Made by a program: the position numbers and the translations under genes
Shown here: positions 191 through 26,856 of the stretch, piece by piece
Layout: each line of letters begins with the position of its first letter
Position numbering within the stretch: position 1 is the first letter of the stretch
From: Psammoneis japonica
Lineage: Eukaryota
Assembly: GCA_008632985.1 (NCBI GenBank)
Contig: QPGO01000262.1
Span: forward strand, 62,001-88,856
DNA: 26,856 nt
Direction: 5' to 3'
Notes under the pieces: model-generated
Databases searched by the model: none
Seen by the model: the letters and a program-made list of their open reading frames with translations, nothing else
Told to the model about the DNA's origin: nothing

Positions 191-974
191 TGCTCATGCC
201 CATGTCTTGAGCAAAGCACACCCCACTTTTCCTTGTCCAAAACTTTGCAGCCATGTGCAAAGTTTCGCTTTTTTTGATGTGTTCCAGCCATGCGCAAACC
301 AAAGCAAGCAGAAAAACAACACTTGCACAATTTTCACATGGCCTCTAACTTGCAAACAAGCTTTCACTGCCAAAATTGCAGATTTGTCCAAATTTCAATG
401 TTTTGCAACACTGACAAGACTCACGTCAGTGCTGCAGTGTGTGGTTGTTTGTGTGCGGCCAATGTTTTTTTCATTGCGACAAATGAGTTGCAACACAACG
501 GATGACTTTTGCCAAAATTTTTGAGAACTCATGTGCTGTTGCTGCTCACAGGCTAACACTGGACATTTTTGTGTGCATTTTGTGGTGGTGGTGTGCTTGC
601 ACAAAAATTTCTGCAAGATGAGCAATGGCGCACAGTTGGCATCATTTCCACAGGATGATTTTGTGACAAATGTTCTCTGTGAAGACTTGAGCACCCATGA
701 AAAAATCGCTCATGTGTTCATTCTCCCATCAAACAGAAAAGCCAGAATGGGCAAGCTTTTTTGTGAACAGCCCAAATGTGCAAACCTCATGTGATTTGTG
801 CTCAAATCAGGTTGTTGTTTTCTTGTGCATCACCTGGGACTGGAGCACGTCTTTTCTCCAAAATTTTTGCTGTCTTCCTTTCATGTGTCCCTTTGCTTGT
901 TGCAAGAACACCCATGCTGCATTTCTTCATTTGCTTTCAACTTGCAGCCTTGATTCTTGCCCATTGCTTGCGTG

Positions 975-1354
975 TGCACCATGCTTGAAGAATGAGCACA
1001 AACAAAAGCAGAGCAAAGCACAAAAAGTGAGAATTGTGAGATTGGATTTTGCTCAATCATTTTGGGATTCTCTGAACAGGCTCTCAATGGCCCAAAGCTT
1101 TTGTGCCAGTCCTGCAGACCAAGAGGCCTTTCAGAGAATGTGCTCGTGACAACAGATTGTCTGGGCACGATTGCCATTGACACACAAGATGTCAACATCG
1201 TCAAGCAATTGCACCTGCAATTTTCGACATCCAATCAACTCTGTTTGATCATTCTGTCCATTGCACAAACCCACGATTGACGTGCGATTGAACACAATGC
1301 AATGTTTGAGTCCACACATGCACACATGAAATGTGTGTGACAGTGCATGCTGCG
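975..1354 (-). repeat. 3' LTR of Gypsy-1
   Basis: tgcaccatgcttgaagaa...catgctgcg, colinear with 5659-6038. Confidence 0.9.
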
Positions 1355-1365
1355 TTCACCTCCCC
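1355..1365 (-). other. Polypurine tract of Gypsy-1
   Basis: Minus strand GGGGAGGTGAA directly abuts the 3' LTR, just after the end of integrase. Confidence 0.75.
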
Positions 1366-1380
1366 AATTGCACATTGGAG

Positions 1381-2376
1381 TCATTTGCCAAACGGCGCAA
1401 TGCAACGGACATTGACAGCATCAATGATGTCACCATGTTTGATCTGTGCTGTGCCACCAGTGTGCGCCGTTGTCATCACACATGGTCCAACATGGGGCTG
1501 CTCTAATTTCTGCAAGTCTTTCTCAAGTGGCATCTTCTCTCCTGCTCTGTGTGCGCTGGATTGGTTTCCAGTCTGTGATGTGTTGGACGTCAAATGTCAT
1601 GTCTCTGTCAAAGACCAACTGTCCTGGTGCAGCTTGCATCACAGCATGATGCATGGATCGCACTGCAAATGCCACTGCTGACAATGTTCCAGCGAAAGGA
1701 TCCTCAGCATCCAGAGGTGCATGTTGCAAATCAAATGCACGGATCACATTTCCCAGCACTTGATGCACCCATTCAACAACTGTGTTTGCTTTTGGATTTT
1801 GTGCAGTTGTTGGGGCTTGACTTTGATGCCATGATCATCTTGCACCACATCTTTAAATTGGTGCCCAATGAACTCACTTCCACGGTCGCATGCAATTGAC
1901 AATGGCCAAGGATGCCTGCTCAGCCATGTCCATTCTAACAGCCCAGCTGCAGTTGTGGATTCCTTGCTTGGAATTTCCACAACTTCAAACCATCCGGTTG
2001 CTGGATCTGTCATTGTCAAGCATTTCAGGACCAGGGGTTTCTTCTTTCCCTTGTGACACATTTTGTGTGGTCCAATGAGATCCACACACAGCCATTCCCA
2101 TGACACTGATTCTGCGCACTTGGGAGGCAAATGCCCACATTTCTTGTGTTTCTTTTTGAATTTCTGGCACATCTCACATCTCGACACACATTTTTGCATG
2201 TCTTCACACAAGGCAGACCACCACAAGTGTTGTGAGATTGTTTCTTCTGTTTGATTTGTGCCAGGGTGAAGAAGGTGCGTGTGATGCCAATCTGTCGCTG
2301 CCTTTTGCAATGTCTTCGGAGCGACGATTTTGTCCTTCCTTGTGACATGTGAGCAACCGGTCTTGCTCACCTCCAC
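1381..2376 (-). pseudogene. pol: Gypsy-1 integrase remnant (zinc finger, rve core, GPY/F-like tail), frameshifted
   Basis: WHHTHLLHPG..CEMCQ..HKKCGHLPPK..LCVDLIGP..MTDPATGWFE..WLSRHPWP..DRGSEF; AVAFAVRS..PGQLVFDRD; PHVGPC..NVRCIAPF. Confidence 0.93.
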
Positions 2377-2505
2377 AAAAAGTCTTCACGTGAAATGTCT
2401 TGTTTGACAATTTGGAGAGAATGTCTCTGTCCCATTTTTGTTCAGTGTCAAGAACTTTGCAATTTAATGGAAAGACATTGTTGCAGTGATTTTGGTGGGA
2501 CCTTT

Positions 2506-2900
2506 TCAGCCAACTCTTCTGTGCTGAGGTTTTCCACAGGTTCCATTTTTTTTCACAGCAAGTCGGCCAATTGCATCTGCGACAATGTTCGCCTTGCCTT
2601 TGAGACACATCATTTTGGGGCTGCACTCTTCTGTTGTTAGACACCAATGCACAACTCTGTCCATTGTGAAATTTTCATGTGTGAGAATTTTGTCATCCAT
2701 GTGTGTGTTCATCTGTTGGCCAAACATCATGTTTTGGAACTCTTTTGATGTCTCCGCTGTGGACAACAGCTCCTTTTTCATTGTGGCACAATGCGTCTGT
2801 GCTCCATTCAGCTCGCGGCTGCAGAAGGCAATTGGTTGGTTGTTCTGCATGATGGCCACTCCCAATTGAGAATTGCTTGCACCAGCACATGTCTCAAAGG
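2506..2900 (-). pseudogene. pol: Gypsy-1 RNase H remnant
   Basis: GVAIMQNNQPIAFCSRELNGAQTHC..KELLS..EECSP..KGKANIVADAI matches the Ty3/Gypsy RNase H pattern. Confidence 0.92.
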
Positions 2901-2929
2901 TGAGTTGAAATTCGGGTGTGATGACAGCA

Positions 2930-3770
2930 TCTCTTCATGTCTTCAAAGGCTTTTTGTTCTGTTTGGTCCATTGCCACTTTGCTTGGGTTGAAGCAAGTTT
3001 GGCTGAAGGAGCCAGAACATGAAATCATTGAGGCCACATGTCTCAACAGCAGTTGATCACACTGGCAAAGCGCCACAATTCCTTGCAAGTTTTGGGAGTT
3101 GCGATCACTTGAATCGCTTCCACCTTTTTTGGAATTGGGCTGATGCCATTGCGGGTGACATGAAAGCCCAGACAGCCCACTTCAGGTTTGGCAAAAAAAA
3201 CTTTTTGGCATTGACCTTCAACCCGGCTTGTTCAAGGTGCAGAAAAACCGTCTCAAGCTTTTTGAGGGGTGGTCTTGAAAATCAACTTTTGCAAGGCACA
3301 GTGTGTCATCAGTGCAAGTCCTGACGAACTCCAGACCTGCCATGAGCTCACTCGTGTGCTCTTGGAAAAACATCTGGAGCTCCACAGATTCCCACAGGGA
3401 GTCTGCAGTGCTCATGTTTGCCCCAAGGCATGACATCGTGCACAAACAACGTGCGCGCGGCGTTGGTTTGATGTGACAGTGTCCCATGCTTAAATCAAGG
3501 GACGTTGCATGCATGAAACCTTCAAGTTTCTGCAGCATGTCCTGAATGTTGGGCAGAGGAAATGGAGCATGTGTTGACCTCTCATTCAGCTCACAAAAGT
3601 TGGGCAAAAACCAAGCTCGCACCAATTTTTCTTTGGTTGAAGGTTGGAGCTGCCCATTCAGAACAATTTGTTTTTCTTGAGACCTTCAGCTTGCATGGTC
3701 TTTCAACCTCCTTTCAAGCAGCCACCTCCAAGGCTTGTGGCATGGGAAATGGTTTGGCATGATGTGGGCC
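2930..3770 (-). pseudogene. pol: Gypsy-1 reverse transcriptase remnant
   Basis: NFCELN..PFPLPNIQDMLQKLEGFMHATSLDLSMGHCHI..FQEHTSELMAGLEFVRTCTDD. The catalytic YxDD reads CTDD at 3305-3316. Confidence 0.93.
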
Positions 3771-4049
3771 AGTGTCCATTTCAACTCTGAATCCACTGGT
3801 TTCCCAGTCCATTTGCCTGGGAACCATCAAAAAGGTTTTCAAATCTTTTTAAGAGGAAGTTTAGCTGCTTTTGCTCTTTTGGTTCTGGATGAGCAGCTGC
3901 TGCTGTCACATCGTCAAGGTCAGCAGCGTGACAGTCTGAGCCAAGGATCCGATTGACCCTGTCATTGAGACCAGTCGCAGCACGAGATTTCTCAATGTGG
4001 TTGGCAATCAACTTAAAAACATCGGCGTCAAAGAGTGCATCAACATTCT

Positions 4050-4514
4050 TCACAGGTGTGGTTGCCTTGCATCCTCCCATTTGATCTCTTCATTCAAGAA
4101 GTTCAGTGTTGTTCCAAGACTTGACATTGAGTCGCATCCCACAATCACATCATGATGACTCAAAGAAGAGTGGGCATCATCAACATGTGCTGTTGCTTCA
4201 ATCATCTTGTGTTTGTCAAATTTGGGTGAGGAGAGCTGGATTTTACATCAACAGTCAGTCGCAAAGAGCCCTCCTTTGGTTTCCCAGATTTTGGTGGCGG
4301 ATGTTTTAGCTCTGAGTTTCCGTGTGAATTTGCACAAAATTGTGGTTGATGATGATGTTCTGCTGTCAAGAACAATGCACAGAGGCTCATTTTTTGCTTT
4401 GCCCAATGAGGTGTTCATGCAAGCAATGACCACTGGACTGGTGTGGGTTGCCTTTTGGCCCTTTTTCCAGGCGTTCCAATGTCCAGCAATGCGCAAGACT
4501 CCTTTGCGGTGCAA
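4050..4514 (-). pseudogene. pol: Gypsy-1 aspartic protease remnant
   Basis: CIVLDSRTSSSTTI (LLDSG-like active site) and WETKGGLF, lying between gag and RT. Confidence 0.75.
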
Positions 4515-4515
4515 G

Positions 4516-5622
4516 TCATTCCTCAGAATTGCTGCGCATCATTCTTTCAAACTGACAATTCTCCTCATCAAGGGTGTCAGAGCCACAATCTTTGCTCTTG
4601 CACTTTTCATCATTGTTCGAAGAACTTGTCTTGAGCATTTTTTGAACTGCCTGGACTGCCATGGCATTCAACTCTTCTTTGCGAGCGGCATTTTCGTTGT
4701 CGCGAGGCGACCACATGCAATTGCCATTTGAACGGCGCCATTTTGGATCACGTTCACAGTGTCCACGGTGTTCTTTTGCTGATTTTTTGATTGACCAGCA
4801 CTTGTCTGTGTTGTGAGTGGACATTTTGAATGAAATGCACCACTTCTTGGACTGAGAATTTTCAGCACCATGTTGGTGACCATTTTTGGCACCACGTTTG
4901 GAGCATTCTTGGCTTTTGATCCAGAACTGCTGCTGGTGTCAGCCTTGGCATGAGTGCTGTCAAATGTGTCCTCTGCAACCTCTGGGCACTCCAGAAACTC
5001 AACCAACTCGTCACAGGTGTGTTTCAAAATTTCGAACCTTGGACGGTTGACTTGAGCTGCCACTTTCGAGGTGCAGGATTGAAGAGGATGTCCTTGAGCT
5101 TGTCCTCCTCAATCTTCTGATCCTTCTCAAAGGGAGGATGGAGCTTGGGGTCTTCTTTGACTTCCTGGACCCAAGCAGCAATTTTGCGTGCTTTAGCCAT
5201 GGTCTCTGGCTTGTTGAGATTGCGATGCAAGCAACATTTCTGAACCTGGAGTGCGTTCTTGGGAAACACATGCAGGCATTTCTCGAGGCTTCCTTTGGCA
5301 GATTTGTCTTCAACATTTGCCACGCCATTCTTGAAAGCATGCAGAGCATCTCCTTGCAACAGCATGTGCATGAGACGGAACTTGTCAGCTTGCTTCTTGA
5401 CGTTCTGGCCCACTGAAAGTTGATCACAGCTCTTGAGGAATTTGATGAACTTGGGAACACCCTGCAACTGGCCTTCTTCTTGGGATGAAAACACTGCTCC
5501 ATCTTGAGGCACTGGCTTGGTTTGAGCGTCTTTGGCTTGGAGTTTGATTCCAATGGCTGAGGAACAATTTTCTCCTGCCTCAATGAAGTCTTGGCATCAG
5601 CAACATGAGGTGAAAGCTTCAT
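4516..5622 (-). pseudogene. gag: Gypsy-1 gag remnant
   Basis: ATG at 5622 just inside the 5' LTR. Fragments LLQGDALHAF, VFPKNALQVQK, LVEFLECPE and a degenerate knuckle (H..THNTDKC). Confidence 0.75.
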
Positions 5623-5658
5623 TTTCAACTTGTCACCTTCTGTGGTGTGTGTGCACAA

Positions 5659-6038
5659 TGCACTGTGCTTGAAGAACAAGCATGAACAAAAGCAGAATGA
5701 AGCACAAAAAGTGAAAATTGTGAGATTGGATTTTGCTCAATCATTTTGGGATTCTCTGAATGGGTTCTCAGTGGCCCAAAGCTTTTGTGCCAGTCCCACA
5801 GACTGAGAGGTTTTTTGGAGAATGTGTTTGTGACAACAGATTGTCTGGGTGTGATTGCCATTGACACATGAGATGTCAACATTGTCAAGCAATTGCATTT
5901 GCAATTTTTGACATCCGATCAACTCTGTGCAATCGTTCTGTCCATCGCACGAACCCACGAATGATGTGCGATTGAACATGACATGACATTCAAGTCCATG
6001 TGTGCGCACATGAAATGCACATGACCACACATGCTGCA
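5659..6038 (-). repeat. 5' LTR of Gypsy-1
   Basis: tgcactgtgcttgaagaa...catgctgca, 380 bp, TG...CA termini. Confidence 0.9.
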
Positions 6039-6689
6039 CATGCTTGCTCAGCTTGTTGTTGTGGACATCTTTGTCAGTGTTGCCCAGCCGGCAATGCAGG
6101 CAGCAGCAGCCTCATGTGCCCTCACTGCAAACATTCTGGGCTCAGCTCTGAGCATGGTCTTTGTTGTCAACTTGCTGCCAGCCACATCACTGCCTCCAAC
6201 TTGACCAAGTCTTTCAGTTGCCTGTGCTGCAGACAACTCTGCGTTGACTTGGGCCCTCTGGTGGAGAGTGCAGCCATCCTGAAGAGCTGATGTGCCATCC
6301 ATGTCTTTGATTTTGGCTGCTTTGCTTTCTTTTGATGCTGTCTCTGTTGCCTTCAATGGGTCCACCTCCAGTCAACCCACAAAATGCCTCATTTTGCTGA
6401 GCTCCTTTTTCTGGCATTGCCCAGCATCCCCAAAGGTGTGCACCCTGCCATGAGAAGGGGAGCGCTTCTGTGCAATGCAGCGGGGCTGTCTCTGATGCCA
6501 TTGATGTCTTTTCCTCTCTGGACAATGACACGCCAAAAACAGCAGCTGACGAAGCAACTTCTGGATCCACTCCTGCCATTGCCCTTCTTCCCCGCACCTC
6601 CACTGCAATGCTTGAAGACAACAACCCAATTGACCAACAAAAGAGTGCCCCCCAATGCCGCCATTCTAAAATGTTCCAATGCACAACAT

Positions 6690-6810
6690 GGCAAAAAGTG
6701 CAAAATCGGGAGGGTGCAGAATGTTCAAGGGTGCAAAAAGAGGAATGATGCAAGATGGCAATGGGGGCCAAATGTTCAAGGGTGCAAAATGGCCAAGGGT
6801 GCAAAAAAAG
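6690..6810 (+). repeat. Short degenerate array of the aagggtgcaaaa satellite motif
   Basis: Several agggtgca units, including caagggtgcaaaatggccaagggtgcaaaa, which is identical to units of the large array. Confidence 0.7.
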
Positions 6811-7394
6811 TGTTCCAGCCACACCACATGAATCAAAACGTGCACACAAATGACGCTCGCGCAATTTTTACATTGGCAAGGACATCCTCCAGTTGCACGC
6901 TTTTTTGGCTCAGTGTTTCCTGTCAACAAGGATTGGTTGCACCCAAAGGAAACTGATGATGAAGCTTTTGCTTGGCCTGGAAAAGACTGTCATGAGAGCA
7001 CTTGGTTGCATTGCTCCATGCTGCTTGAAGACCCCAAAGAAGACGCTGATGCACAGCAGCATTGTTTGACAAGGGCGCTTTGAAATTGCACAGAGAGTTG
7101 ATGAGAAAAAGCAAGGCCGACCCAAATGTCATGATGGACATTCCAACAATGGTGGCCTTTGTCTGTGAGTGGTTGAGCAAGGGAAAGAGCTTGAGTGTTT
7201 CGGTCAGAAGATTTGCCACAATGGAAGAGGAGGGACAAGTTGAATTTGTGGATCACAAAGGGACCCTTGTGGCAGAGGAAAGAATCAAGACCTTGCATTC
7301 AAACACCTTTTGCATGAGGTGCAAGGTTGGAAGGAACGTTCACAGCAGCCTGTCTGAGTTGGTGCCAGACATCGTTCTTGTTGAAAATGGCATT

Positions 7395-7783
7395 GATGCT
7401 TTCCAGGTCTAGGTGGGACCTCGCACTGCTGAACTGTGACATCGACAGTTTTTTGAATCGCGTTGCATGTCGCGCACGCACATTTCTACGTGATTTTGGC
7501 GAAATTTTGCATCATTTTACAGTGCAATTGTCAGGCGATCCATTCAACAACTTTTGATGTTTTTTTCTTCTGCGCCATTCTCGAGTGTCCCAAGAATGGC
7601 GCAGGGCAGGCCATTGTCCAAAACTTCAAGTGTGAACAGAGACATGTGTGCCACAAACTTGGCCGTTCATTTCATGTCGAAGACAAATGTGTCCATTGAC
7701 CAGAGTGCAAAACTGCAGAGCTCGCATGTGGAATTCTGCGGGGCAAATGTCACAAAAAGTCCCACCTGGGACTGGAACCCGTC
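7395..7783 (+). mobile_element. MITE copy A (389 bp), TSD CATT
   Basis: catt|GATGCTTTCCAGG...CTGGAACCCGTC|catt. Confidence 0.9.
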
Positions 7784-8192
7784 CATTTGTGAAAAGGCAC
7801 AAGATGATGGTGTGCAGATGACCATTGCAGTTCTTCAAGGTTGGCTCAACAAAGCCCAGCCTGCGGTTGTGGCTGACCAAACATCTGCAGCTGAGGCAGT
7901 GCCGGCACACGAGCCCCTTTTTCATGGACGACAATTCAGCAAGTGGAGCAAGAATTCAAGCGCGCACCAGTTGGTCAACAGGTGCCTGTCAAAGACTGTC
8001 AACACAACGGACAGCAATGAAGAGGCAACACACAAGTTGAAGGCAGAATTCACTGAATTGAACAAACAGTGTGGCACCGTTGCTTGCGCCATTGCTTGCA
8101 TGCAACTGAACAAAAATGTGACTCCAAAGCAGCTGAAGGATGAAATCCACTGCAGGGGGTGCAACACCGACGACGAACTTGATTGCTCAGAT

Positions 8193-8582
8193 GACACGTT
8201 CCAGCCCCAGGCGGGACTCCGTGTGACATTGGGCCCGCAGAATTCTGCATGCGAGCTCTGCAGTGCAAGAATTTAATTGATGCATGTGTTCATCTTCAAC
8301 ATCAAACAAAAGGCCAAGTTTGTGGTGCAATTGTGCCTCTCACCACTCAACGTTTTTGCAAATGTGCCTGCCCCGTGCAATTCTCAAGACATCACAGAGT
8401 CGCGCTGCAACAAAAAATGTCAAAAGTTGTTGGACGGATCGATCAATTGTTGCACCGTAAAATGACACAAAATGTCACCAAAATCACGTGGAAATCTGCG
8501 TGCGCGACATGCGACACGATTCAAAAAACCATCGATGTCACAGTTCAGTGGTGCGAGGTCCCACCCAGACCTGGAACGCATC
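8193..8582 (-). mobile_element. MITE copy B (390 bp), TSD AGAT
   Basis: agat|GACACGTTCCAGCC...CTGGAACGCATC|agat. Confidence 0.93.
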
Positions 8583-10694
8583 AGATGCCGACCCTTTCAA
8601 AATCAAGTTTCGAACTGCCGTCCAACTGGAGCCAGAGCAACTGTGAGGCAAGGCCATGGGGAAATTTGTGTTTGACGAGGATCAAAGTTGCAGCGACTGC
8701 AACAACTTTGACGAGTCCTGCAAGGACCCAAACTCTGCAGAAGAGCATGCAATGATCAAGGCAACACTCATCTAACAGAGTCATTTCAACCACTCCTGAT
8801 GTGAATGCCCAGAGCACAACAAAGGTGGGTTCGACAGAGGCCAGGACATTGATCAGTCTCAAAAAATTGGAGATTTGAGCAGACTGTTGAATCTCAGCCA
8901 TCAGCTGTGCAGCAGCAGGAAAATCGTGAGGTCGACGGTGTTGAGACGAATGGAGTGGAAGGAACTGCTGGTTGGTCAGGCAAGTGGAGCAAAATGGAAC
9001 CAGCGATGGTCCCAAAATGACACACAGTCTGCACCTCACACATCGATTCTGAACATGATGCAGAAAATGACGAGTCGGTTGAATTGAGCAAGACATCATT
9101 TCTGAACATTTCCAAGATGATGAGTGCAAAGACTCAGAAGGAGCCGAGATTCAGGAAGATGTGACAAAAGATCACAGTCAAGGCAAAACGGCTGCAAAAG
9201 AGCCAGAAGCATCAGAAAGCGGTGACAGCAATGCAGCACAAGATGCAGCCAGCGACAAGCTGGAAAAGAAGACATTGCATCTGTGAAACAAATGGGCCTT
9301 GGTGATGGCCAGCAGGCAGAACAAAGCAAGTCTGAAGAGGGGCAGAAGAGATCGTCAGGTGAAGCAATTCAATCAGGTGAGCAAGGCAAAATGGAGCCAG
9401 CCATGGTCCCAAATGGTGCTGTCTTCGTTTCTCACGTCAAACATTTCAAACGCTGTGCAGACAATTGAGAGTCGGTCAAAATGGACCCAGAAATGGACCC
9501 AAATGGCTCACCCCATGCTGGGCAGGACATTTCTGAAAATGTGCAAGATGATGACTCCTTTCCAGCCCAAGAAGACGGTGGTGAGATGCAGGGATTGCAA
9601 GGCAGCATTGAGGATGCAGCCCCTGATTCGGTCAGAGACAAGCCAAGTCAACGACCCAGCGCATCTCTGAAAACACACAAAACCTCAGAGGGTGACCTGT
9701 CTGATGCAGATTCGAAGTGAAGCTGAAGAGGAAAGCCAGGAGGAAGAGGGAAGTGAAGCAGAAGAGGAAAGCCAGGAGGAATTGGAGCAGGAGGATGGGG
9801 AGATGTCAGGCAACAATGATGATGAGAAACGTGGCGACGGCAACAAGAGAGCAAACAAGCAACATCGGCAGGGAGATTGTCAGAAAAAATTTCCCACAAG
9901 AACACTCGTGACGACAACAACAAAGCCAACAAGTAAAGTTGGCTGGAAATGGTGCAAAAGAAATTGCGCAATCATGACAGAGGCACGGAAGGAGTTCCAA
10001 GTGCAGTCAAGCAGGACGAAGTGTCTGAAACAGCAAGCATTGTCAGTGACGGATCTGCTGCGCCAGAGCTCCCTGTTGTCGCCAATCAAAAGGCAGCATT
10101 GCTGCCATGAAGCAAAGGGATCCAGCAATGGCAACCATCGAAACATTTGCCACAGAAAAAGAGCGGGCAAGTGGTCGTCTGTTTTTGGAAAAGACGAGAC
10201 AGGAAGCCAAAGCCAACAGGAGAAAGCAGATTCGGAAAGAAAAGAAAGAGGCAGAGGGCCCCTCTGCTCCACCGAAGTCAAAAAAAATGAGGAGGGTTGT
10301 TGTGAACATGCCCCGCTCCTCTGCAAGAAATCAGAGCAAGAGAAAGAAGGGCTGGAACATCATTTGTGCAAACACAATCACTGCAGATGTTGACATTTGT
10401 GTGTGTGCATCCAGCGCTTCAATTGCTTGTCAAAATGACATTGCAGCTGTTGACAGCAAACCAATGTGTGATCCCAAAACACATCTTTGGCAATGCCAGT
10501 TGTTGGTTGAAATGGGCCCAGCGTTGGTCCCAAATGGCGCAGCCTGCCCATCACCCATCAACCGAAATGGGTCCAGCAAAGGTCCCAAATGGGAGGTCTG
10601 TGCATTGCACGTCGCCATTTTGTGGTCAAAAACATTGATGGATGATGTGTGGACTCTTGCCCCAACCCAAAACCAAACCAAAAAGACGCGTGCA

Positions 10695-10758
10695 CCAACC
10701 CTGACCCCTGGCCCCTGACCCCAACCCTGCCCCCAACCCCAACCCTGCCCCTGCCCCC
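10695..10758 (+). repeat. Degenerate telomere-like (CCCTAA-type) hexamer tract; continues at 15895-15908
   Basis: Units ccctga, ccctgg, ccccaa and ccctgc. Hexamer phase resumes (ccccaa ccccag) on the far side of Gypsy-2. Confidence 0.65.
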
Positions 10759-11113
10759 TGCACTGTGCTTGAAGAATGAGCACAAACGAAAGCAGAACAA
10801 AGTGCGAAAAGTGGAAACATGAGATTAAATTGTGCTCTGTGCTTTTTGGTTTCTCCGAATGAGTTCTCAAAATGGCCCAAAGCTTCTGCACTGCTTCCAC
10901 AGACAAAAGGCCTTTCGGAGAATGCATCTGTGACAACAGATTGTCCAAGTGCGATTGCCATTGACGCGCAAGATGTCAGCATCGTCAATCGATCGCATTT
11001 GCAATTTTCGACTCCCAATCAGCTCTGTGTGATTGTTCTGTCCTTTGTGCACATCCACGACTGTGGCACGATTGACACACAAATGATGTGTGATTGTGGA
11101 CATGCACACTGCA
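10759..11113 (-). repeat. 3' LTR of Gypsy-2
   Basis: tgcactgtgcttgaagaatgag...cacactgca, colinear with 15529-15894 except for a short indel near the end. Confidence 0.88.
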
Positions 11114-11123
11114 CTCGCCTCCC
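11114..11123 (-). other. Polypurine tract of Gypsy-2
   Basis: Minus strand GGGAGGCGAG abuts the LTR, and the adjacent attgcacattggagtcatt is shared with Gypsy-1. Confidence 0.7.
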
Positions 11124-11139
11124 TGATTGCACATTGGAG

Positions 11140-13969: not shown

Positions 13970-14358
13970 GACGCGTTCCAGGTCCAGGTGGGACCTCGCA
14001 CTGCTGAGCTGCGACATCAACAGTTTTTTGAATCTCATCGCATGTCGTGCACGTGGATTTCTACGTGATTTTTTTGATGTTTTGTGTCATTTTACAGCAC
14101 ACTTGTTGAGCAATCTGTCCAAAAACTTTTGACATTTTTTGTCACAGCGCAACTCTAAAATGTCTTGAGAACTGCGTGGGGCAGGCACACTTGCAAAAAC
14201 GTTGAGTGGTGAGAGGCACAATTGTGCCACAAACTTGGCCATTCATTTGATGTTGAAGACAAATGCATCCATTGATTAAATTCTCATGCTGCGGAGCTTG
14301 CATGCAGAATTCTGCAGGCCCAATGTCACACGGAGTCCGCCCAGGGCTGGAACGCATC
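13970..14358 (+). mobile_element. MITE copy C (389 bp) nested in Gypsy-2, TSD CAGA
   Basis: caga|GACGCGTTCCAGG...CTGGAACGCATC|caga. Confidence 0.93.
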
Positions 14359-14362
14359 CAGA

Positions 14363-15491
14363 TCATTTTTTCCAAATTGACAGTTTCGCTCGCTGAGTGT
14401 TTTAGAGCCACAATTTTTGCTCTCATTTCCACGTTCCTTTGCCAAGGAAATCATTTTAACTGTTTTTGTGAACTGCCCAGTCACTGTGGCATGCAACTCC
14501 TCTTTCACAGAGACATTTTTCTGCTGTCATCACGTCGCGTGCAATTGCTGTTAGAGAGTCATGTTTTTGGGTTTCTCTCAGAGCAACCCTTGCACTCTTT
14601 TGCTGCTTCATTTTCAGAACAGCTTCAACCCATGATGCAGGTGTTCTTTTTTCAAAGATTGGACCTCTGGCTCACTTTGGATTGTTCAGGTGCCATGTGG
14701 GAGACCATTTTTAGAACCAAACTTGGAGCCATTTTGGTTTTGAAATTGGCTTTGCTGTCAGCGCCTGATTTGACATGTTTTTTCATCATGGACATCTTCA
14801 ATGACCTTCAGATGACTCAAAACTTAATCAGCACATCAAGGATGAGTTCCAATGGTTGGTTGTTTTGGACAGCAGACTGATGCTGCCACCCTTGTGGTGC
14901 GAGTGACAGCTGATGTCTCAGCACTCGGTTTCCCACTGAGCTCGACTTAGAATCGATTGAAGGGTCGCGTGGATGCTCTTCATTGACCTCTTGGGTCCAA
15001 TGGGCACTCTCTTGCTGCTGAGAGCCTTTGGTTTCTTCAGATCATCTCAAAAACAATGGCTCTGATTCTGAAGTTTAACTTCTCGGAAGACATGAGTCAA
15101 GAGACTCTTGAGGCACTTTTCAGCGGTTTCTTCTTGGTCTTCAGACTCAAGGCTTGTTGACTTGGTCTCTAAAAACTCTCCAACAGTCTCTCCTTGCACA
15201 GCAGATGCATTTCTTTGACCTGGTTGACTCGCGACCTGAAATTCATCGAGTCATGACTTGGTGCAGACATTTCGACAATGCTGTGCACTTGCAGAGTCCT
15301 TGGTCCTGAGGTGCTTGAAATGGATCACATTGGAATGAATCCTCTTGTCTCACAGACAAAAAACAGGGTCCCATCTTGAGGTGCTGCTCAGATTGAGCTG
15401 CCTCCACTCGGAAATCAATTCCAGCAGAACCAGCACATTTCACACCTGCTCATGGAAGAGTTTGCAAAGGCACATCAGCCAAAACTTTCAT
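14363..15491 (-). pseudogene. gag: Gypsy-2 gag remnant
   Basis: ATG at 15491 (MKVLADV) in the same position as the Gypsy-1 gag start. KEELHA..SKNCGSKTLSERNCQF parallels Gypsy-1 KEELNA..SKDCGSDTLDEENCQF. Confidence 0.65.
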
Positions 15492-15528
15492 TTTCCGTGT
15501 TTTTGCCTTTTGTGGTGTGTGCACACAA

Positions 15529-15894
15529 TGCACTGTGCTCAAAGAATGAGCACAAACGAAAGTGGAACAAAGTGCAAAAAGTGAAAATGTGAGATCAAAT
15601 TTTGCTCTGTGCTTTTTGGTTTCTCCAAATGAGCTCTCAATGGCCCAAAGCTTCTGCACTCCTTCTGCAGACAAAAGGCCTTTTGGAGAACATGTCCATT
15701 GCAACAGATTGTCTGAGTGCGATTGCTGTTGACACGCAAGATGTCAAAATCGTCAATCGACTGCGTTTGCAATTTTCGACTTCCGATCAACTCTGTGTGA
15801 TCATTCTGTCCTTTGCGCGCATCCACGACTGTGGAGTGATTGGCGCACAAACAACACATGATTGCAGACATGCACACAACAGTCGCGCGCTGCA
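15529..15894 (-). repeat. 5' LTR of Gypsy-2
   Basis: tgcactgtgctcaaagaatgag...gctgca followed by cccc. Confidence 0.88.
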
Positions 15895-15997
15895 CCCCAA
15901 CCCCAGCCGAGCACATTTTGTGACAACTGCAGCATGGTGAAGAATGTCAGCATTCCAGAATCTGTGCTGCATGAGAAGCACAGCGCGGTCAATTGTT

Positions 15998-16318
15998 GAT
16001 GCGCTCCAGCCCCAGGCGGGACTCCGTGTGACATTGGGCCCGCAGAATTCTGCATGCGAGCTCCGCAGTGCAAGAATTTAATTGATGGACACATTTGTCT
16101 TCAACATCAAATGAATGGCCAAGTTTGTGTTGCAATTGTGCCTCTTGACACTCCACGTTTTTGCAAGTGCGCCTGCCCTGCACGATTCTTAAGACATTGT
16201 AGAATTGCGCTGTGACAAAAAATGTCAAAAGTTGTTGGACGGATCGCTCAATGAGTGCACCACAAAATGACACAAATGTCAAAAAAATCACGCAGAAATC
16301 TACGTGCGCGACATGTGA
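15998..16318 (-). mobile_element. MITE copy D, truncated (one terminus only)
   Basis: Starts GATGCGCTCCAGCCCCAGG, colinear with copy B until ~16318, and lacks the last ~70 bp. Confidence 0.88.
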
Positions 16319-16416
16319 GAGAAGCATCTGCAGCTGGAATTTGGCGGGCTTGTTGATGAAGCTCATGGAAGGTGCAAAGCATTGGCAGTTGTGCTCATTT
16401 TCATTTTGGTGATCGC

Positions 16417-16806
16417 GATGCATTCCAGGTCTGGGTGGGACCTCGCACTGCTGAACTGTGACATCGACAGTTTTTTGAATCACGTCGCATGTCGTGCACG
16501 TGGATTTTCACATGATTTTTTTGACATTTTGTGTCATTTTATGGTGCACTTGTTGAGCGATCCGTCCAACAACTTTTGACATTTTTTGTCACAGCGCGAT
16601 TCTTTGATGTCTTAAGAATCACGCAGGGCAGGTGCATTTGCAAAAACGTCGAGAGGCAAGAGGCACAATTGCGCCACAAACTTGGCCGTTCATTTGATGT
16701 TGAAGACAAACACATCCATCAATTAAATTCTTGCACTGCAGAGCTCGCACGCAGAATTCTGCGGGCCCAATGTCACACGGAGTCCCGCCTGGGGCTGGAG
16801 CGCATC
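16417..16806 (+). mobile_element. MITE copy E (390 bp), TSD TCGC
   Basis: tcgc|GATGCATTCCAGG...CTGGAGCGCATC|tcgc. Confidence 0.93.
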
Positions 16807-17752
16807 TCGCCAAGGTTCAGGGCCTGTGAACCTCCCAAGCCAGATGAGCTGGCTGCAAAGTTGGGTTTGTGTTTCACCTCTCTGTGAGAGGATGTTTCGA
16901 GTGTGTGAGCCAAGGGTGCAAAACAAAGGGTGCAAAATGGAAAAGGGCACAAAATCACAAAGGGTGCAAAATCACAAAGGGCGCAAAATGGCCAAGGGCG
17001 CAAAATCACAAAGGGCTCAAAGGGCGCAAAGGGTGCAAAATCACAAAGGGCGCAAAATGGACAAGGGCGCAAAATCACAAAGGGCACAAAATGGCCAAGG
17101 GCACAAAATCACAAAGGGTGCAAGACAGCCAAGGGCTCAAAATCACAAAGGGCACAAAATGGAGGCAAAGGGTGCAAAGTCACAAAGGGCACAAAATGGC
17201 CAAGGGCGCAAAATCACAAAGGGCTCAAAATCACAAAGGGTGCAAAGGGCGCAAAACCACAAAGGGTGCAAAATCACAAAGGGCGCAAAATCACAAAGGG
17301 CACAAAATGGCGGCAAAGGGCACAAAATCACAAAGGGCGCAAAATGACCAAGGGAGCAAGACAGCCAAGGGCTCAAAATTGCAAAGGGCGCAAAATGGTG
17401 GCAAAGGGTGCAAAACCACAAAGGGCGCAAAATGGCCAAGGGTGCAAAATCACAAAGGGCTCAAAATCACAAAGGGTGCAAAATCACAAAGGGCGCAAAA
17501 TGGACAAGGGTGCAAAATCACCAAGGGTGCAAGACAGCCAAGGGCTCAAAATCACAAAGGGTGCAAAATGGCGGCAAAGGGTGCAAAAACAAAAAGGGCG
17601 CAAAACAGCCAGGGCACAAAATCACAAAGGGTGCAAAATCAGAAAGGGCGCAAAATGGCCGAGGGCGCCAAATCACAAATGGCGCTAAATCACAAAGGGC
17701 ACAAAATGGCGTCAAAGGGTGCAAAATCACAAAGGGCACAAAATGGCCAAGG

Positions 17753-18542
17753 GATGTGCTCCAGCCCCAGGCGGGACTCCATGTGACATTTGGCCCGTGG
17801 AACTCCACGTGTGAGCTCCGCAGTGCAAGAACTCAATTGATGGATGTGCTCATCTTCAAGATCAAATGAGCGGCCAAATTTGTGGTGCAATTGTGCCTCG
17901 CGCCACTCAACTTTTTTGCAAATGTGCCTGCCCTGCGCGATTCTTGAGACATCACAGAATCGCGCTGCAACAAAGATGGGTTCCAGTCCCAGGTGGGACT
18001 TTTTGTGACATTGGGCCCGCAGAATTCTGCGTGCGAGCTCCACAGCAAAATTGTCAAGCAATGCATGTGTGAATGATCGCCAACAGAAAAAGAGGCAATT
18101 TTGCGAACACATCTCCTCCTCCACACTTGAAGTGCATTCTTTGCAGCATGCCCGGGCATGTTCTCCAGACATTGAAGAACACACCCAGCACATTTTTGTT
18201 GACATGAGCACAGACAACAGCAAGCCTTTGGCTTCGCAAAACAGGCAGTGTGGAACAATTTTTTGTGACAGAACACGCAGAAATGTGCGCGCGAAACATG
18301 CGACGGATGACAAAAAACAATTGTGCCACAGCTCAGCAGTGCAAGGTCCCAAATGGAGCTGGAACACGTCCAAAAAATGTCAAAAGTTGTCACGCGGATC
18401 GCTCAACAAGTGCGCCATGAGATGACACAAAATGTCACAAAAATCACGCAGAAATCTGCGTGCGCGACATGCGACGCAATTCAAAAAACTGTCAATGTCG
18501 CAGCTCATCAGCACGAGGTCCCACCCAGACCTGGAACGCACC
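17753..18542 (-). mobile_element. MITE copy F, TSD AAGG, split by a nested related MITE
   Basis: aagg|GATGTGCTCCAGCC...CTGGAACGCACC|aagg. Removal restores the satellite unit atggccaagggcgcaaaa. Confidence 0.9.
17975..18370 (-). mobile_element. Second MITE subfamily (396 bp) nested in copy F, TSD CAAA
   Basis: caaa|GATGGGTTCCAGTCCC...GCTGGAACACGTC|caaa. The ends are related to the main family but the interior differs. Confidence 0.88.
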
Positions 18543-19008
18543 AAGGGCGCAAAATCACAAAGGATGCAAAATGGTGGCAAAGGGTGCAAAATCACAAGTG
18601 GTGCAAAATGGCCAAGGGCGCAAAATCACAAAGGGCTCAAAATCACTTTTGCGCCCTTTGCCGCCATTTTCCGCCCTTTGTGATTTTGTGCCCTTGGCCA
18701 TTTTGCACCCTTTGTGATTTTGCGCACTTTGCCACCATTTTGCGCCCTTTGTGATTTTGTGCCCTTTGCCGCCATTTTGCACCCTTTGTGGTTTTGCACC
18801 CTTGGCCATTTTGTGCCCTTTGTGATTTTGAGCCCTTTGCCGCCATTTTCCGCCCTTTGTGATTTTGCACCCTTGGCCATTTTGCACCCTTTGTGATTTT
18901 GCACCCTTTGCCGCCATTTTGCGCCCTTTGTGATTTTGCACCCTTGGCCATTTTGCACCCTTTGTGCTTTTGCACCCTTTGCCGCCATTTTGCACCCTTT
19001 GTGATTTT

Positions 19009-19396
19009 GACGTGTTCCAGGTCTGGGTGGGACCTCGCACTGCTGAACTGTGACATCGACAGTTTTTTGAATCATGTCGCATGTCGCGCACATGGATTTC
19101 TGCGTGATTTTTCGATGTTTTGTGTCATTTTACGGTGCACTTGTTGAGCGATCCGTCCAACAACTTTTGACATTTTTTGTTGCAGCGCGATTCTACAATG
19201 TCTTAAGAATCGCGTGGGCAGGCGCATTTGCAAAAACGTCGAGTGGCAAGAGGCACAATTGTGCCACAAACTTGGCCGTTTGTTTGATGTTGAAGACAAA
19301 TGTGTCCATCAATTAAATTCTCGCACTGCGGAGCTCGCACGTAGAATTCTGCGGGCCCAATGTCACACGGAGTCCCACCCAGGGCTGGAACGCGTC
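19009..19396 (+). mobile_element. MITE copy G (388 bp), TSD TTTT
   Basis: tttt|GACGTGTTCCAGG...CTGGAACGCGTC|tttt. Confidence 0.92.
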
Positions 19397-22132
19397 TTTT
19401 GCACCCTTTGCTGCCATTTTGCGCCCTTTGTGATTTTGCGCCCTTGGCCATTTTGCTCCCTTTGTGGTTTTGCACCCTTTGCGACTTTGCGCCCTTGGCC
19501 ATTTTTCACCCTTTGTGACTTTGCACCCTTTGCTGCCATTTTGCGCCCTTTGTGATTTTGCGCCCTTGGCCATTTTGCACCCTTTGTGATTTTGAGCCCT
19601 TTGCGACTTTGCACCCTTGGCCATTTTGCACCCTTTGTGATTTTGCACCCTTTGCCACCATGTCGCACCCTTTGCCGCCATTTTGTGCCCTTTGCAATTT
19701 TGCACCCTTTGTGATTTTACACCCTTTGTGATTTTGCACCCTTGGCCATTTTGTGCCCTTTGTGATTTTGAGCCCTTTGCAACTTTGCGCCCTTGGCCAT
19801 TTTGCACCCTTGGCCATTTTGCGCCCTTTGTGACTTTGCACCCTTTGCCGCCATTTTGCACCCTTTGTGACCTTGCACCCTTTGCTGCCATTTTGCACCC
19901 TTTGTGATTTTGCGCCCTTGGCCATTTTGCTCCCTTTGTGGTTTTGCACCCTTTGCAACTTTGCTCCCTTGGCCATTTTTCACCCTTTGTGATTTTGCAC
20001 CCTTTGCTGCCATTTTGCGCCCTTTGTGATTTTGCGCCCTTGGCCATTTTGCGCCCTTTGTGATTTTGCACCCTTTGCCGCCATTTTGGGCCCTTTGTGA
20101 TTTTGCACCCTTGGCCAATTTGCGCCCTTTGTGATTTGCACCCTTCACCGCCATTTTGCACCCTTTGTGATTTTGCACCCTTTGCTGCCATTTTGCACCC
20201 TTTGTGATTTTGCGCCCTTGGCCATTTTGCTCCCTTTGTGATTTTGCACCCTTTGCGATTTTGCACCCTTTGCGACTTTGCGCCCTTTGTGATTTTGCAC
20301 CCTTTGCTGCCATTTTGCACCCTTTGTGATTTTGCACCCTTTGTGATTTTGTGCCCTTGGCCATTTTGTGCCCTTTGTGATTTTGCACCCTTTGCCACCA
20401 TTTTGGGCCCTTTGTGATTTTGCACCCTTTGCGATTTGCGCCCTTGGCCATTTTGCGCCCTTTGTGATTTTGCGCCCTTTGTGATTTTGTGCCCTTGGCC
20501 ATTTTGCACCCTTTGTGATTTTGAGCCCTTTGTGACTTTGCACCCTTGGCCATTTTGCACCCTTTGTGATTTTGCACCCTTTGCCACCATGTCGCACCCT
20601 TTGTGATTTTGTGCCCTTTGCTGCCATTTTGCACCCTTTGTGATTTTGCGCCCTTGGCCATTTTGCGCCCTTTGTGATTTTGAGCCCTTTGCGACTTTGC
20701 ACCCTTGGCCATTTTGCACCCTTTGTGATTTTGCACCCTTTGCCGCCATGTCGCACCCTTTGTGATTTTGTGCCCTTTGCTGCCATTTTGCACCCTTTGT
20801 GATTTTGCACCCTTTGTGATTTTGCGCCCTTGGCCATTTTGCGCCCTTTGTGATTTTGAGCCCTTTGCAACTTTGCGCCCTTGGCCATTTTGCACCCTTG
20901 GCCATTTTGCGCCCTTTGTGATTTTGCACCCTTTGCCGCCATTTTGCGCCCTTTGTGATTTTGCACCCTTTGCTGCCATTTTGTGCCCTTTGTGATTTTG
21001 CGCCCTTTGTGATTTTGCACCCTTGGCCATTTTGCTCCCCCTGTGATTTTGCACCCTTTGCGATTTTTCACCCTTTGTGATTTTGCACCCTTTGCTGCCA
21101 TTTTGCGCCCTCGGTGATTTTGTGCCCTTGGCCATTTTGCGCCCTTTGTGATTTTGCACCCTTTGCCGCCATTTTCCGCCCTTTGTGATTTTGCACCCTT
21201 TGTGATTTTGCACCCTTGGCCACTTTGCAACCTTTGTGATTTTGCACCCTTTGCGATTTTGCGCCCTTTGTGATTTTGGACCCTTTGCCACCATTTTCCG
21301 CCCTTTGTGATTTTGCACCCTTTGCTGCCATTTTGCTCCCTTTGTGATTTTGCGCCCTTTGTGATTTTGTGCCCTTGGCCATTTTGCGCCCTTTGTGATT
21401 TTGCACCCTTTGCCGCCATTTTGCGCCCTTTGTGATTTTGCTCCCTTTGCCACCATTTTGCGCCCTTTGTGATTTTGCACCCTTTGCCGCCATTTTGTGC
21501 CCTTTGCAATTTTGTGCCCTTTGTGATTTTGCACCCTTGGCCATTTTGCGCCCTTGGCCAATTTGCGCCCTTTGTGATTTTGCACCCTTTGCCGCCATTT
21601 TGCACCCTTTGTGATTTTGCACCCTTTGCTGCCATTTTGCACCCTTTGTGATTTTGCACCCTTTGCTGCCATTTTGTGCCCTTTGCAATTTTGCGCCCTT
21701 TGTGATTTTGCACCCTTGGCCATGGTGCAAAATGGCCAAGGGCGCAAAATCACAAAGGGCTCAAAATCACTTTTGCGCCCTTTGCCGCCATTTTCCGCCC
21801 TTTGTGATTTTGTGCCCTTGGCCATTTTGCACCCTTTGTGATTTTGCGCACTTTGCCACCATTTTGCGCCCTTTGTGATTTTGTGCCCTTTGCCGCCATT
21901 TTGCACCCTTTGTGGTTTTGCACCCTTGGCCATTTTGTGCCCTTTGTGATTTTGAGCCCTTTGCCGCCATTTTCCGCCCTTTGTGATTTTGCACCCTTGG
22001 CCATTTTGCACCCTTTGTGATTTTGCACCCTTTGCCGCCATTTTGCGCCCTTTGTGATTTTGCACCCTTGGCCATTTTGCACCCTTTGTGCTTTTGCACC
22101 CTTTGCCGCCATTTTGCACCCTTTGTGATTTT

Positions 22133-22522
22133 GACGTGTTCCAGGTCTGGGTGGGACCTCGCACTGCTGAACTGTGACATCGACAGTTTTTTGAATCATG
22201 TCGCATGTCGCGCACATGGATTTCTGCGTGATTTTTTCGATGTTTTGTGTCATTTTACGGTGCACTTGTTGAGCGATCCGTCCAACAACTTTTGACATTT
22301 TTTGTTGCAGCGCGATTCTACAATGTCTTGAGAATCGCGTGGGGCAGGCGCATTTGCAAAAACGTCGAGTGGCAAGAGGCACAATTGTGCCACAAACTTG
22401 GCCGTTTGTTTGATGTTGAAGACAAATGTGTCCATCAATTAAATTCTCGCACTGCGGAGCTCGCACGTAGAATTCTGCGGGCCCAATGTCACACGGAGTC
22501 CCACCCAGGGCTGGAACGCGTC
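22133..22522 (+). mobile_element. MITE copy H (390 bp), TSD TTTT; duplicate of G
   Basis: Same flanks and nearly the same sequence as G, offset ~3125 bp. Confidence 0.9.
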
Positions 22523-23777
22523 TTTTGCACCCTTTGCTGCCATTTTGCGCCCTTTGTGATTTTGCGCCCTTGGCCATTTTGCTCCCTTTGTGGTTTTGCA
22601 CCCTTTGCGACTTTGCGCCCTTGGCCATTTTTCACCCTTTGTGACTTTGCACCCTTTGCTGCCATTTTGCGCCCTTTGTGATTTTGCGCCCTTGGCCATT
22701 TTGCACCCTTTGTGATTTTGAGCCCTTTGCGACTTTGCACCCTTGGCCATTTTGCACCCTTTGTGATTTTGCACCCTTTGCCACCATGTCGCACCCTTTG
22801 CCGCCATTTTGTGCCCTTTGCAATTTTGCACCCTTTGTGATTTTACACCCTTTGTGATTTTGCACCCTTGGCCATTTTGTGCCCTTTGTGATTTTGAGCC
22901 CTTTGCAACTTTGCGCCCTTGGCCATTTTGCACCCTTGGCCATTTTGCGCCCTTTGTGACTTTGCACCCTTTGCCGCCATTTTGCACCCTTTGTGACCTT
23001 GCACCCTTTGCTGCCATTTTGCACCCTTTGTGATTTTGCGCCCTTGGCCATTTTGCTCCCTTTGTGGTTTTGCACCCTTTGCAACTTTGCTCCCTTGGCC
23101 ATTTTTCACCCTTTGTGATTTTGCACCCTTTGCTGCCATTTTGCGCCCTTTGTGATTTTGCGCCCTTGGCCATTTTGCGCCCTTTGTGATTTTGCACCCT
23201 TTGCCGCCATTTTGGGCCCTTTGTGATTTTGCACCCTTGGCCAATTTGCGCCCTTTGTGATTTTGCACCCTTCACCGCCATTTTGCACCCTTTGTGATTT
23301 TGCACCCTTTGCTGCCATTTTGCACCCTTTGTGATTTTGCGCCCTTGGCCATTTTGCTCCCTTTGTGATTTTGCACCCTTTGCGATTTTGCACCCTTTGC
23401 GACTTTGCGCCCTTTGTGATTTTGCACCCTTTGCTGCCATTTTGCACCCTTTGTGATTTTGCACCCTTTGTGATTTTGTGCCCTTGGCCATTTTGTGCCC
23501 TTTGTGATTTTGCACCCTTTGCCACCATTTTGGGCCCTTTGTGATTTTGCACCCTTTGCGATTTTGCGCCCTTGGCCATTTTGCGCCCTTTGTGATTTTG
23601 CGCCCTTTGTGATTTTGTGCCCTTGGCCATTTTGCACCCTTTGTGATTTTGAGCCCTTTGTGACTTTGCACCCTTGGCCATTTTGCACCCTTTGTGATTT
23701 TGCACCCTTTGCCACCATGTCGCACCCTTTGTGATTTTGTGCCCTTTGCTGCCATTTTGCACCCTTTGTGATTTTGC

Positions 23778-24259
23778 NNNNNNNNNNNNNNNNNNNNNNN
23801 NNNNNNNNNNNNNNNNNNNNNNNNNNNNNNNNNNNNNNNNNNNNNNNNNNNNNNNNNNNNNNNNNNNNNNNNNNNNNNNNNNNNNNNNNNNNNNNNNNNN
23901 NNNNNNNNNNNNNNNNNNNNNNNNNNNNNNNNNNNNNNNNNNNNNNNNNNNNNNNNNNNNNNNNNNNNNNNNNNNNNNNNNNNNNNNNNNNNNNNNNNNN
24001 NNNNNNNNNNNNNNNNNNNNNNNNNNNNNNNNNNNNNNNNNNNNNNNNNNNNNNNNNNNNNNNNNNNNNNNNNNNNNNNNNNNNNNNNNNNNNNNNNNNN
24101 NNNNNNNNNNNNNNNNNNNNNNNNNNNNNNNNNNNNNNNNNNNNNNNNNNNNNNNNNNNNNNNNNNNNNNNNNNNNNNNNNNNNNNNNNNNNNNNNNNNN
24201 NNNNNNNNNNNNNNNNNNNNNNNNNNNNNNNNNNNNNNNNNNNNNNNNNNNNNNNNNNN
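23778..24259. other. Assembly gap (482 N)
   Basis: Run of n characters. Confidence 1.
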
Positions 24260-26823: not shown

Positions 26824-26856
26824 GGCAAGAGGTCAGTTGTGATTTGCGCAGAAAGT

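Follow-up and report, generated by a model that had tools for sequence, protein, structure and literature searches.

We analyzed a stretch of 26,856 bases from the Psammoneis japonica assembly GCA_008632985.1 (contig QPGO01000262.1, positions 62,001 to 88,856 of the forward strand), hereafter the window, in which the dinucleotide TpA has almost disappeared and the few surviving copies show a strong bias in their flanking bases. The window is eukaryotic repeat DNA with a GC content of about 47% and a single run of Ns (23778-24259), leaving 26,374 non-N bases, and its 64 surviving TpA all lie between positions 346 and 22845. An original prediction, made from the letters alone, had proposed that TpA is lost in a fixed order of preference, TAT/ATA before TAC/GTA before YTAR (Y, pyrimidine; R, purine). 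TpA-directed hypermutation of foreign DNA has one report so far, a 2026 preprint on integrated viral DNA in Bigelowiella natans, where TpA becomes TpG or CpA (Mettrop et al. 2026, bioRxiv 10.64898/2026.01.13.699255).

Two long terminal repeat (LTR) retrotransposons of one Ty3/gypsy family lie on the minus strand. Copy 1 (960..6084) has LTRs at about 975-1325 and 5659-5978 and carries frameshifts and remnants of integrase, RNase H and reverse transcriptase (RT); Pfam places Integrase_H2C2 and rve at 1747-2385 and RT_RNaseH at 2509-2934, and the homologs found by tblastn align over 1390-3817. These Ty3/gypsy pol homologs come from environmental assemblies and reach 57% identity. Copy 2 (10744..15960; LTRs at about 10759-11109 and 15529-15877), delimited by self-blast, is the older one and carries as an insertion a member of a family of miniature inverted-repeat transposable elements (MITEs).

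The MITE family has eight copies in the window, each of about 390 bp, mapped by self-blast and family alignment: m1 (7385..7790, plus), m2 (8188..8595, minus), m3 (13962..14365, plus), which is the insertion in copy 2, the truncated m4 (15993..16325, minus), m5 (16410..16812, plus), which holds the window's only TAT at 16540-16542, m6 (17748..18548, minus), which has no TA and is interrupted by an insert at 17975-18370, m7 (19003..19402, plus) and m8 (22127..22528, plus). The left part of the 396-base insert that splits m6 resembles a MITE end, which suggests a nested insertion. One contig of the public run X1 omits 7391-7791 (MITE m1, 399 bases) and carries six other letters at the junction. 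This contig may represent an allele or paralog whose site is empty, and the MITE would then have been mobile. An exact-pattern scan of metagenome_contigs for a conserved 26-letter MITE core returned 0 loci.

A 17-bp satellite forms the main array at 19397..26140 (listed as plus), broken by m8 and the N run, and a second, oppositely oriented array at 16912..17753 (likewise listed as plus), with a TA observed/expected ratio of 0.03. The three measured satellite segments hold 2 TA in 5,847 bases. Satellite orientation flips head to head at 18640 and 21765, which are inverted junctions. Between the repeats lie low-copy spacer A (6091..7384; TA ratio 0.024, contig depth about 75-800) and low-copy spacer B (8596..10743; TA ratio 0.016, depth about 250-340 over 9025-10716). 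At the right end, a minus-strand open reading frame (ORF) of 233 codons (26134-26832) begins with ATG and extends into the satellite; it contains no TA, and its CpG is nearly normal (0.89). The origin of this ORF and of the spacers was not recognizable in searches of Pfam, Atlas and homologs: the right-end and spacer ORFs gave no Pfam family at the curated cutoff, no usable Atlas match and, in a comparison with proteins of 128-408 residues, no homolog at E 0.01. The right-end ORF possibly encodes a tyrosine-less remnant of a mobile or viral gene.

The scarcity of TpA extends over all of these features. Across the window the TA observed/expected ratio is 0.04, corresponding to the loss of about 96% of the TpA expected, with CG at 0.50, CA at 1.77 and TG at 1.69. 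The deficits of TA (about 1,670) and CG (about 730) add up to about 2,400, and the surpluses of CA (about 1,090) and TG (about 1,240) to about 2,330. Since surplus and deficit nearly balance, the depletion is mutational, with TA turned into CA or TG. CpG is depleted as well, more so in the older elements and the spacers (0.24-0.53) than in the MITEs (0.72-0.89), and because CpG decay and TpA decay both end in CA or TG, the GC content stays near 47%. MITE alignment columns 141, 224, 257, 272 and 332 are mostly CA or TG, with one CG among the seven copies; these five columns could be heavily decayed CpG or, alternatively, TA sites altered at both adenines, which would give CG directly.

Every sequence class, low-copy spacers included, has a TA ratio of 0 to 0.12. 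Twelve of the 13 measured segments combine a TA ratio of at most 0.12 with CA and TG ratios that are both at least 1.49, and the segment with the right-end ORF has CA at 1.54 and TG at 1.22. Contig depth over the repeats is in the thousands, far above that of the low-copy spacers. As the spacers nonetheless lack TA to the same extent as the repeats, targeting looks regional and would act on a domain as opposed to copy by copy.

The coding remnants of the retrotransposons record the same conversions. We aligned 14 homologous pol proteins and selected codons at which tyrosine (Tyr) occurs in 60% or more of the aligned homologs, with a minimum of 6 aligned. None of the 34 such codons in copy 1 still encodes Tyr; 12 encode His and 12 Cys, written as CAT (9), TGT (8), TGC (4) and CAC (3). 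Copy 2, with 15 such codons, likewise retains no Tyr and has 6 Cys and 3 His. Control residues are mostly retained (His at 12 of 16 positions, Cys at 6 of 7, Phe at 27 of 34 and Trp at 18 of 25), and the homologs themselves contain 3.5-5.0% Tyr. In other columns, Ile has become Thr or Met, Val has become Ala, and Leu has become Ser or Pro, as expected from ATA, GTA, TTA and CTA.

This pattern also bears on whether the missing TpA could be an artefact of sequencing, assembly or data processing, to which we assign hardly any probability. The N run and the differing homopolymer lengths of two near-identical blocks in the window speak for imperfections of that kind, but an artefact would not change Tyr to His or Cys and at the same time leave the codons for His, Cys, Phe and Trp intact, nor would it yield survivors ordered by context or a mix of TA, CA and TG among repeat copies. 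Moreover, contigs of public run X1 match the TA-poor sequence (342 bases with 0 differences; 732 bases with 5), although this run is possibly the window's own source and so not independent of it. X1 is the one public run listed as sharing window words (0.54 of those sampled), and no RNA run is listed; at 80% likeness its contigs show the families to be multi-copy, with 2,257 transition places versus 545 transversion places.

An element inserts with two identical LTRs, and their present differences date from after that event. The LTR pair of copy 1 (element TA ratio 0.033) is 86.9% identical and has 11 double differences of CA versus TG; the pair of copy 2 (element TA ratio 0.058) is 84.5% identical and has 14. 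Together this makes 25 such double differences in 669 aligned bases, besides 20 further sites at which CG has been kept in one LTR. About 5.6 of the 25 could stem from CpG, and to that extent they count against us; the remaining splits are TA sites converted independently in each LTR. TA, CA and TG likewise coexist among copies within columns of the MITE alignment. Furthermore, blocks 18599-20649 and 21723-23777, which span up to 2,055 bases of satellite and MITE (m8 in the second) and are 99.76% identical, differ by four homopolymer insertions or deletions and one substitution, the TTAAG of m7 (at 19204-19205), which is TTGAG in m8. These blocks could have arisen by duplication very recently, or they could be an assembly repeat. 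The conversions in the window thus occurred in place, after insertion.

The LTR comparison also bears on a rival account in which the changes arise by ADAR-type editing of double-stranded transposon RNA before reverse transcription, or of DNA/RNA hybrids. ADAR prefers a 5' U or T and deaminates deoxyadenosine (dA) in DNA/RNA hybrids (PMC5389660), and a parallel with ADAR is drawn in the discussion of the B. natans preprint (10.64898/2026.01.13.699255). Nevertheless, divergence within the LTR pairs postdates integration, depletion in MITEs, satellite and low-copy DNA is as strong as in the retrotransposons, and the His and Cys products on the sense strand of copy 1 are balanced at 12:12. We therefore find ADAR-type editing scarcely credible, all the more because TAG, its best triplet, is with TAA among the contexts that survive best here while TAT is gone.

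The flanks of the 64 surviving TpA are far from random. The YTAR class holds 43 of them (TTAA 23, CTAA 10, TTAG 9 and CTAG 1), in agreement with the original prediction that most survivors would be CTAA, TTAA or TTAG. TAC/GTA accounts for 20 (TTAC 8, CTAC 5, GTAA 4 and GTAG 3), 13 of which lie inside MITEs, the minority with many MITE members that had been foreseen. As had also been noticed, there is no ATA and only one TAT, the TTAT at 16540; no survivor occurs in ATAC/GTAT, ATAG/CTAT, ATAT or GTAC. The example sites named beforehand were each correct to within one base, and all 64 fall inside the span proposed for them. Within the window, a first-order Markov model predicts 25.7 of 64 survivors in ATA/TAT against the 1 seen (binomial P = 2e-13), so survival depends on the flanks. 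If the flanks of all 5,540 CA and TG sites serve as the null instead, 39.3% of survivors are expected in ATA/TAT (P = 6e-13).

We then excluded five sites lying in the second of the two 99.76% identical blocks and counted each orthologous MITE column once. The 46 sites left comprise 36 YTAR, 10 TAC/GTA and no ATA/TAT, compared with 19.7%, 41.0% and 39.3%, respectively, under the CA/TG-flank null, and the predicted order TAT/ATA, TAC/GTA, YTAR holds both on the exact counts and after de-duplication. Expressed by half-site relative to the flanks of TG, survival is 1.56 after a 5' T, 1.49 after a 5' C, 0.63 after a 5' G and 0.04 after a 5' A; read on the opposite strand, loss is quickest with a 3' T, then with C, and then with G or A, which are about equal.

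The lone TAT can be traced through its sister copies. In m5 the site at 16540 reads TTTTATGG, the copies at 19131, 22256 and 8458 (the last on the reverse strand) read TTTTACGG, and those at 7518 and 14093 read TTTTACAG. The TAT therefore likely stems from CpG-to-TpG decay beside an old TA, the origin that had been suspected and that the alignment of TTTTATGG with TTTTACGG bears out.

A bias among survivors could in principle reflect original scarcity of the missing contexts. We inferred ancestral TA sites by parsimony from the MITE alignment (seven independent copies) and the LTR alignment (four copies). ATA/TAT makes up 21 of the 49 ancestral sites, and by context the 25 LTR split sites include 14-16 ATA/TAT, 5 TAC/GTA and 4 YTAR. 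Per copy-site, retention is 0 of 110 in ATA/TAT versus 19 of 157 elsewhere (Fisher P = 3.5e-5), and per site it is 0 of 21 versus 8 of 28 (P = 0.007). Since ATA/TAT was common before conversion and none was retained, the pattern is a bias of survival and not one of original scarcity. The age of the elements points the same way: the younger MITEs (CpG 0.72-0.89, TA 0.06-0.12) still have TAC/GTA sites, whereas 33 of 38 unique survivors outside the MITEs, in older elements, are YTAR, the order expected if ATA/TAT, GTA/TAC and YTAR were lost successively. MITE retention is 16.5% outside ATA/TAT compared with less than 1.6% inside, which corresponds to ATA/TAT being lost at least about 2.3 times as fast. 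As the process is near saturation, a ratio of that size suffices for the pattern, and the near disappearance of ATA/TAT is not the same as strict specificity.

It is also improbable that the survivors are mostly new TpA, made after hypermutation had stopped, with flanks reflecting how TA is created. Individual survivors do fit this idea: 17686 (CTAA) and 19718/22844 (TTAC) depart from the satellite consensus, and the TAT at 16540 received its 3' T by CpG decay. However, transitions from CA or TG, the commonest route to a new TA, would place 39% of survivors in ATA/TAT, where 1 of 64 is seen; the same MITE column is TA in up to five of seven copies and CA or TG in the others, which marks the TA as ancestral; and the TA/TG difference between the near-identical blocks indicates that the process is recent. 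Selection for stop codons or for TTAA target sites was considered as well and rejected, since the repeats that harbor the survivors are dead, the survivors occur on either strand, and which of the orthologous MITE copies keep a given site is random.

Conversion is even-handed with respect to strand. His and Cys products are equally frequent in copy 1, and CAT and TGT number 11 and 10 over both copies. At asymmetric ATA/TAT sites, the base adjoining the flanking A:T pair was changed 50 times and the far base 36 times (P = 0.16). Strand coordination of neighboring conversions was not found, with 95 pairs of the same product and 119 of different products (permuted mean 107.6); near saturation, its absence is weak evidence on processivity. 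Because either adenine feels the flank to about the same degree and neighbors behave independently, we infer that TpA is recognized as a duplex. An activity that reads the duplex fits these data better than a single-strand deaminase contacting the neighbors on its own strand, although two matching strand-specific preferences may be at work instead.

Near-equal action on both adenines would also be expected if the bias came from DNA mechanics, with alternating purine-pyrimidine flanks opening the TA step and T-tract or A-tract flanks stiffening it. In this scenario whatever activity is directed at TpA would produce the order seen. In its favor, of the alternating RTAY words (ATAT, GTAC and ATAC/GTAT) none is seen where 11.5 are expected; T is also enriched among survivors one position further out (0.60 versus 0.38). 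On the other hand, GTA is lost faster (0.63) than TTA (1.56) or CTA (1.49). In standard nearest-neighbor tables, however, the GT/AC step ranks with the more stable ones, and TTAA, all A/T, is the best survivor. We hold a purely mechanical origin to be unlikely while giving it real weight. Simple duplex stability, as a candidate in itself, was set aside, as by the GTA versus TTA and CTA ratios and the survival of TTAA it fails to order the classes. The flank bias would be an enzyme's fingerprint more probably than a property of the DNA duplex.

Taking these data together, we consider it highly probable that the window lies in a chromosomal domain subject to in-place, TpA-targeted A:T-to-G:C hypermutation and that the flanks of the survivors are its kinetic footprint. 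TA is converted to CA or TG on DNA in place, across LTR retrotransposons, MITEs, satellite and low-copy DNA. In the mechanism we propose, duplex TpA would be recognized, and one of its two A:T pairs then changed. Conversion is quickest where the T follows a purine or, equivalently, the A precedes a pyrimidine, with ATA/TAT by far the fastest; GTA/TAC is intermediate, and YTAR slowest, especially after a T run, so that YTAR is what remains near saturation. Deamination of adenine to inosine would be the most likely chemistry, with a mutagenic modification of thymine as the alternative. A further possibility, which we put forward only tentatively, is that this hierarchy, affecting both adenines alike, lacking strand-coordinated runs and extending through a domain irrespective of copy number, was left by a DNA base modifier that reads the duplex and is specific for TpA. 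Such a modifier would constitute a new class of mutator in eukaryotic genome defence, with preferences that match no known ADAR, ADAT/TadA, APOBEC or polymerase-eta signature.

Several points weigh against the interpretation as in-place hypermutation with a flank preference. The independent sample is small, 46 sites from one window, and a few survivors are new and not spared, such as the satellite sites 17686 and 19718. Ancestral TA retained in no copy is inferred from CA/TG splits, and MITE and LTR copies share ancestry, so that the copy-level counts are not independent. Within the MITE family alone, TAC/GTA (9 of 61 retained) and YTAR (9 of 48) do not separate into tiers. Since T is enriched further out, part of the flank effect could be due to T-tract structure. 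The TA/TG difference between the near-identical blocks is the only recent event seen directly. Furthermore, TA is palindromic, so adenine deamination and thymine modification are indistinguishable, and the proposed identity with the process of B. natans is based on its signature.

To our knowledge, no enzyme is known for TpA-directed hypermutation. Ranked flanking preferences led to the assignment of the APOBEC, AID and repeat-induced point mutation (RIP) signatures, and a literature search on the flanking preference of TpA hypermutation turned up only the B. natans preprint. The text of that preprint states no flanking preference, which its figures and supplements (Fig. 2B, Table S2) may hold (10.64898/2026.01.13.699255). 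The ranked preference described here thus appears to be new, testable information on TpA hypermutation. As a quantitative prediction it can be compared directly with the de novo mutations already published. It also speaks against both deaminase models raised, ADAR (which prefers TAG) and ADAT2 acting on DNA (GAA), and it suggests ATAT versus TTAA as oligonucleotide substrates for an assay. The window also illustrates that the process can run near completion, strip Tyr codons from transposon genes and cover low-copy DNA among repeats. If a base modifier is indeed responsible, the mutator might be sought, and a candidate confirmed, by this fingerprint.

Among known systems, RIP, a genome-defence process of Neurospora and other fungi, resembles the process in the window in producing transitions at one preferred dinucleotide with ranked neighbors and in hitting repeated or foreign DNA. 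RIP acts mainly from CpA to TpA. It therefore creates TA, whereas the process in the window removes it (TpA 0.04, CpA 1.77) and also hits low-copy DNA. RIP changes C to T (PMC7296669), and the comparison with it is also drawn in the discussion of the preprint (10.64898/2026.01.13.699255).

The original prediction had called for a comparison with known deaminase and polymerase signatures, and neither ADAR, amphioxus ADAT2 nor polymerase eta fits the hierarchy. ADAR shares the A-to-I chemistry and the 5' U/T preference, with which losses at TpA agree. Its best triplet is TAG (94% yield), with 3' G favored (PMC5389660), whereas here a 3' G (survival 1.49) or 3' A (1.56) protects compared with a 3' T (0.04). 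The changes in the window are moreover heritable, in DNA and strand-symmetric, in contrast to a restriction to transcribed strands or retroelements. Amphioxus BjADAT2 deaminates both A and C in DNA, in the contexts GAA and TCG, respectively (PMC10354150). The losses described here are at TpA, with GA at 1.11 and AA at 1.42, a difference that concerns the preference only and not whether the enzyme is an ADAT2 homolog. The natural tRNA substrates of ADAT2/ADAT3 have a pyrimidine, U and A34, followed by a base other than U. This context is closer to the surviving YTAR than to ATA/TAT, the context preferred here.

Polymerase eta shares with the process in the window A-to-G changes at an A that follows T or A. 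A polymerase-eta-like enzyme carrying out error-prone patch synthesis might explain the focus on TA, as in somatic hypermutation this polymerase mutates preferentially at WA (W, A or T), a motif that TA contains on both strands, making TA a hotspot on each (PMC7884765). Such an enzyme should, however, also have depleted AA (1.42) and TT (1.50) and raised AG (0.89), none of which is the case, and every hypermutation reported in B. natans is at TpA (10.64898/2026.01.13.699255). We regard patch synthesis as very improbable.

The closest counterpart is the TpA hypermutation of B. natans. Two integrated viral regions acquired 231 mutations in mutation-accumulation lines, of which 230 were A-to-G or T-to-C, all at TpA; the genome has 124 TpA-poor, CpA- and TpG-rich clusters of 3 kb or more, and reverse-transcriptase and DDE domains are overrepresented among coding sequences poor in TpA (10.64898/2026.01.13.699255). 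The hypermutable regions also contain 144 A/T-to-G/C SNPs, and the giant-virus region has 6,169 TpA sites. The preprint further describes de novo mutation that is ongoing and episodic in living lines, indicates that a single-copy region can be a target and proposes an ADAT2-like deaminase as the enzyme (10.64898/2026.01.13.699255). The two cases differ in degree, with a TA observed/expected ratio of 0.04 here versus a Rho of 0.45 in the B. natans giant-virus region, and in their targets, which are LTR retrotransposons, MITEs, satellite and low-copy spacers here and integrated viral regions there. In both, A:T-to-G:C transitions are limited to TpA and give TpG or CpA depending on the strand, the DNA is TpA-poor and CpA- and TpG-rich by the thresholds that the preprint gives, and the target is of viral or transposon origin, represented in the window by Ty3/gypsy domains and MITEs. 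Judged by these signatures, the process in the window matches B. natans TpA hypermutation and may well be the same one.

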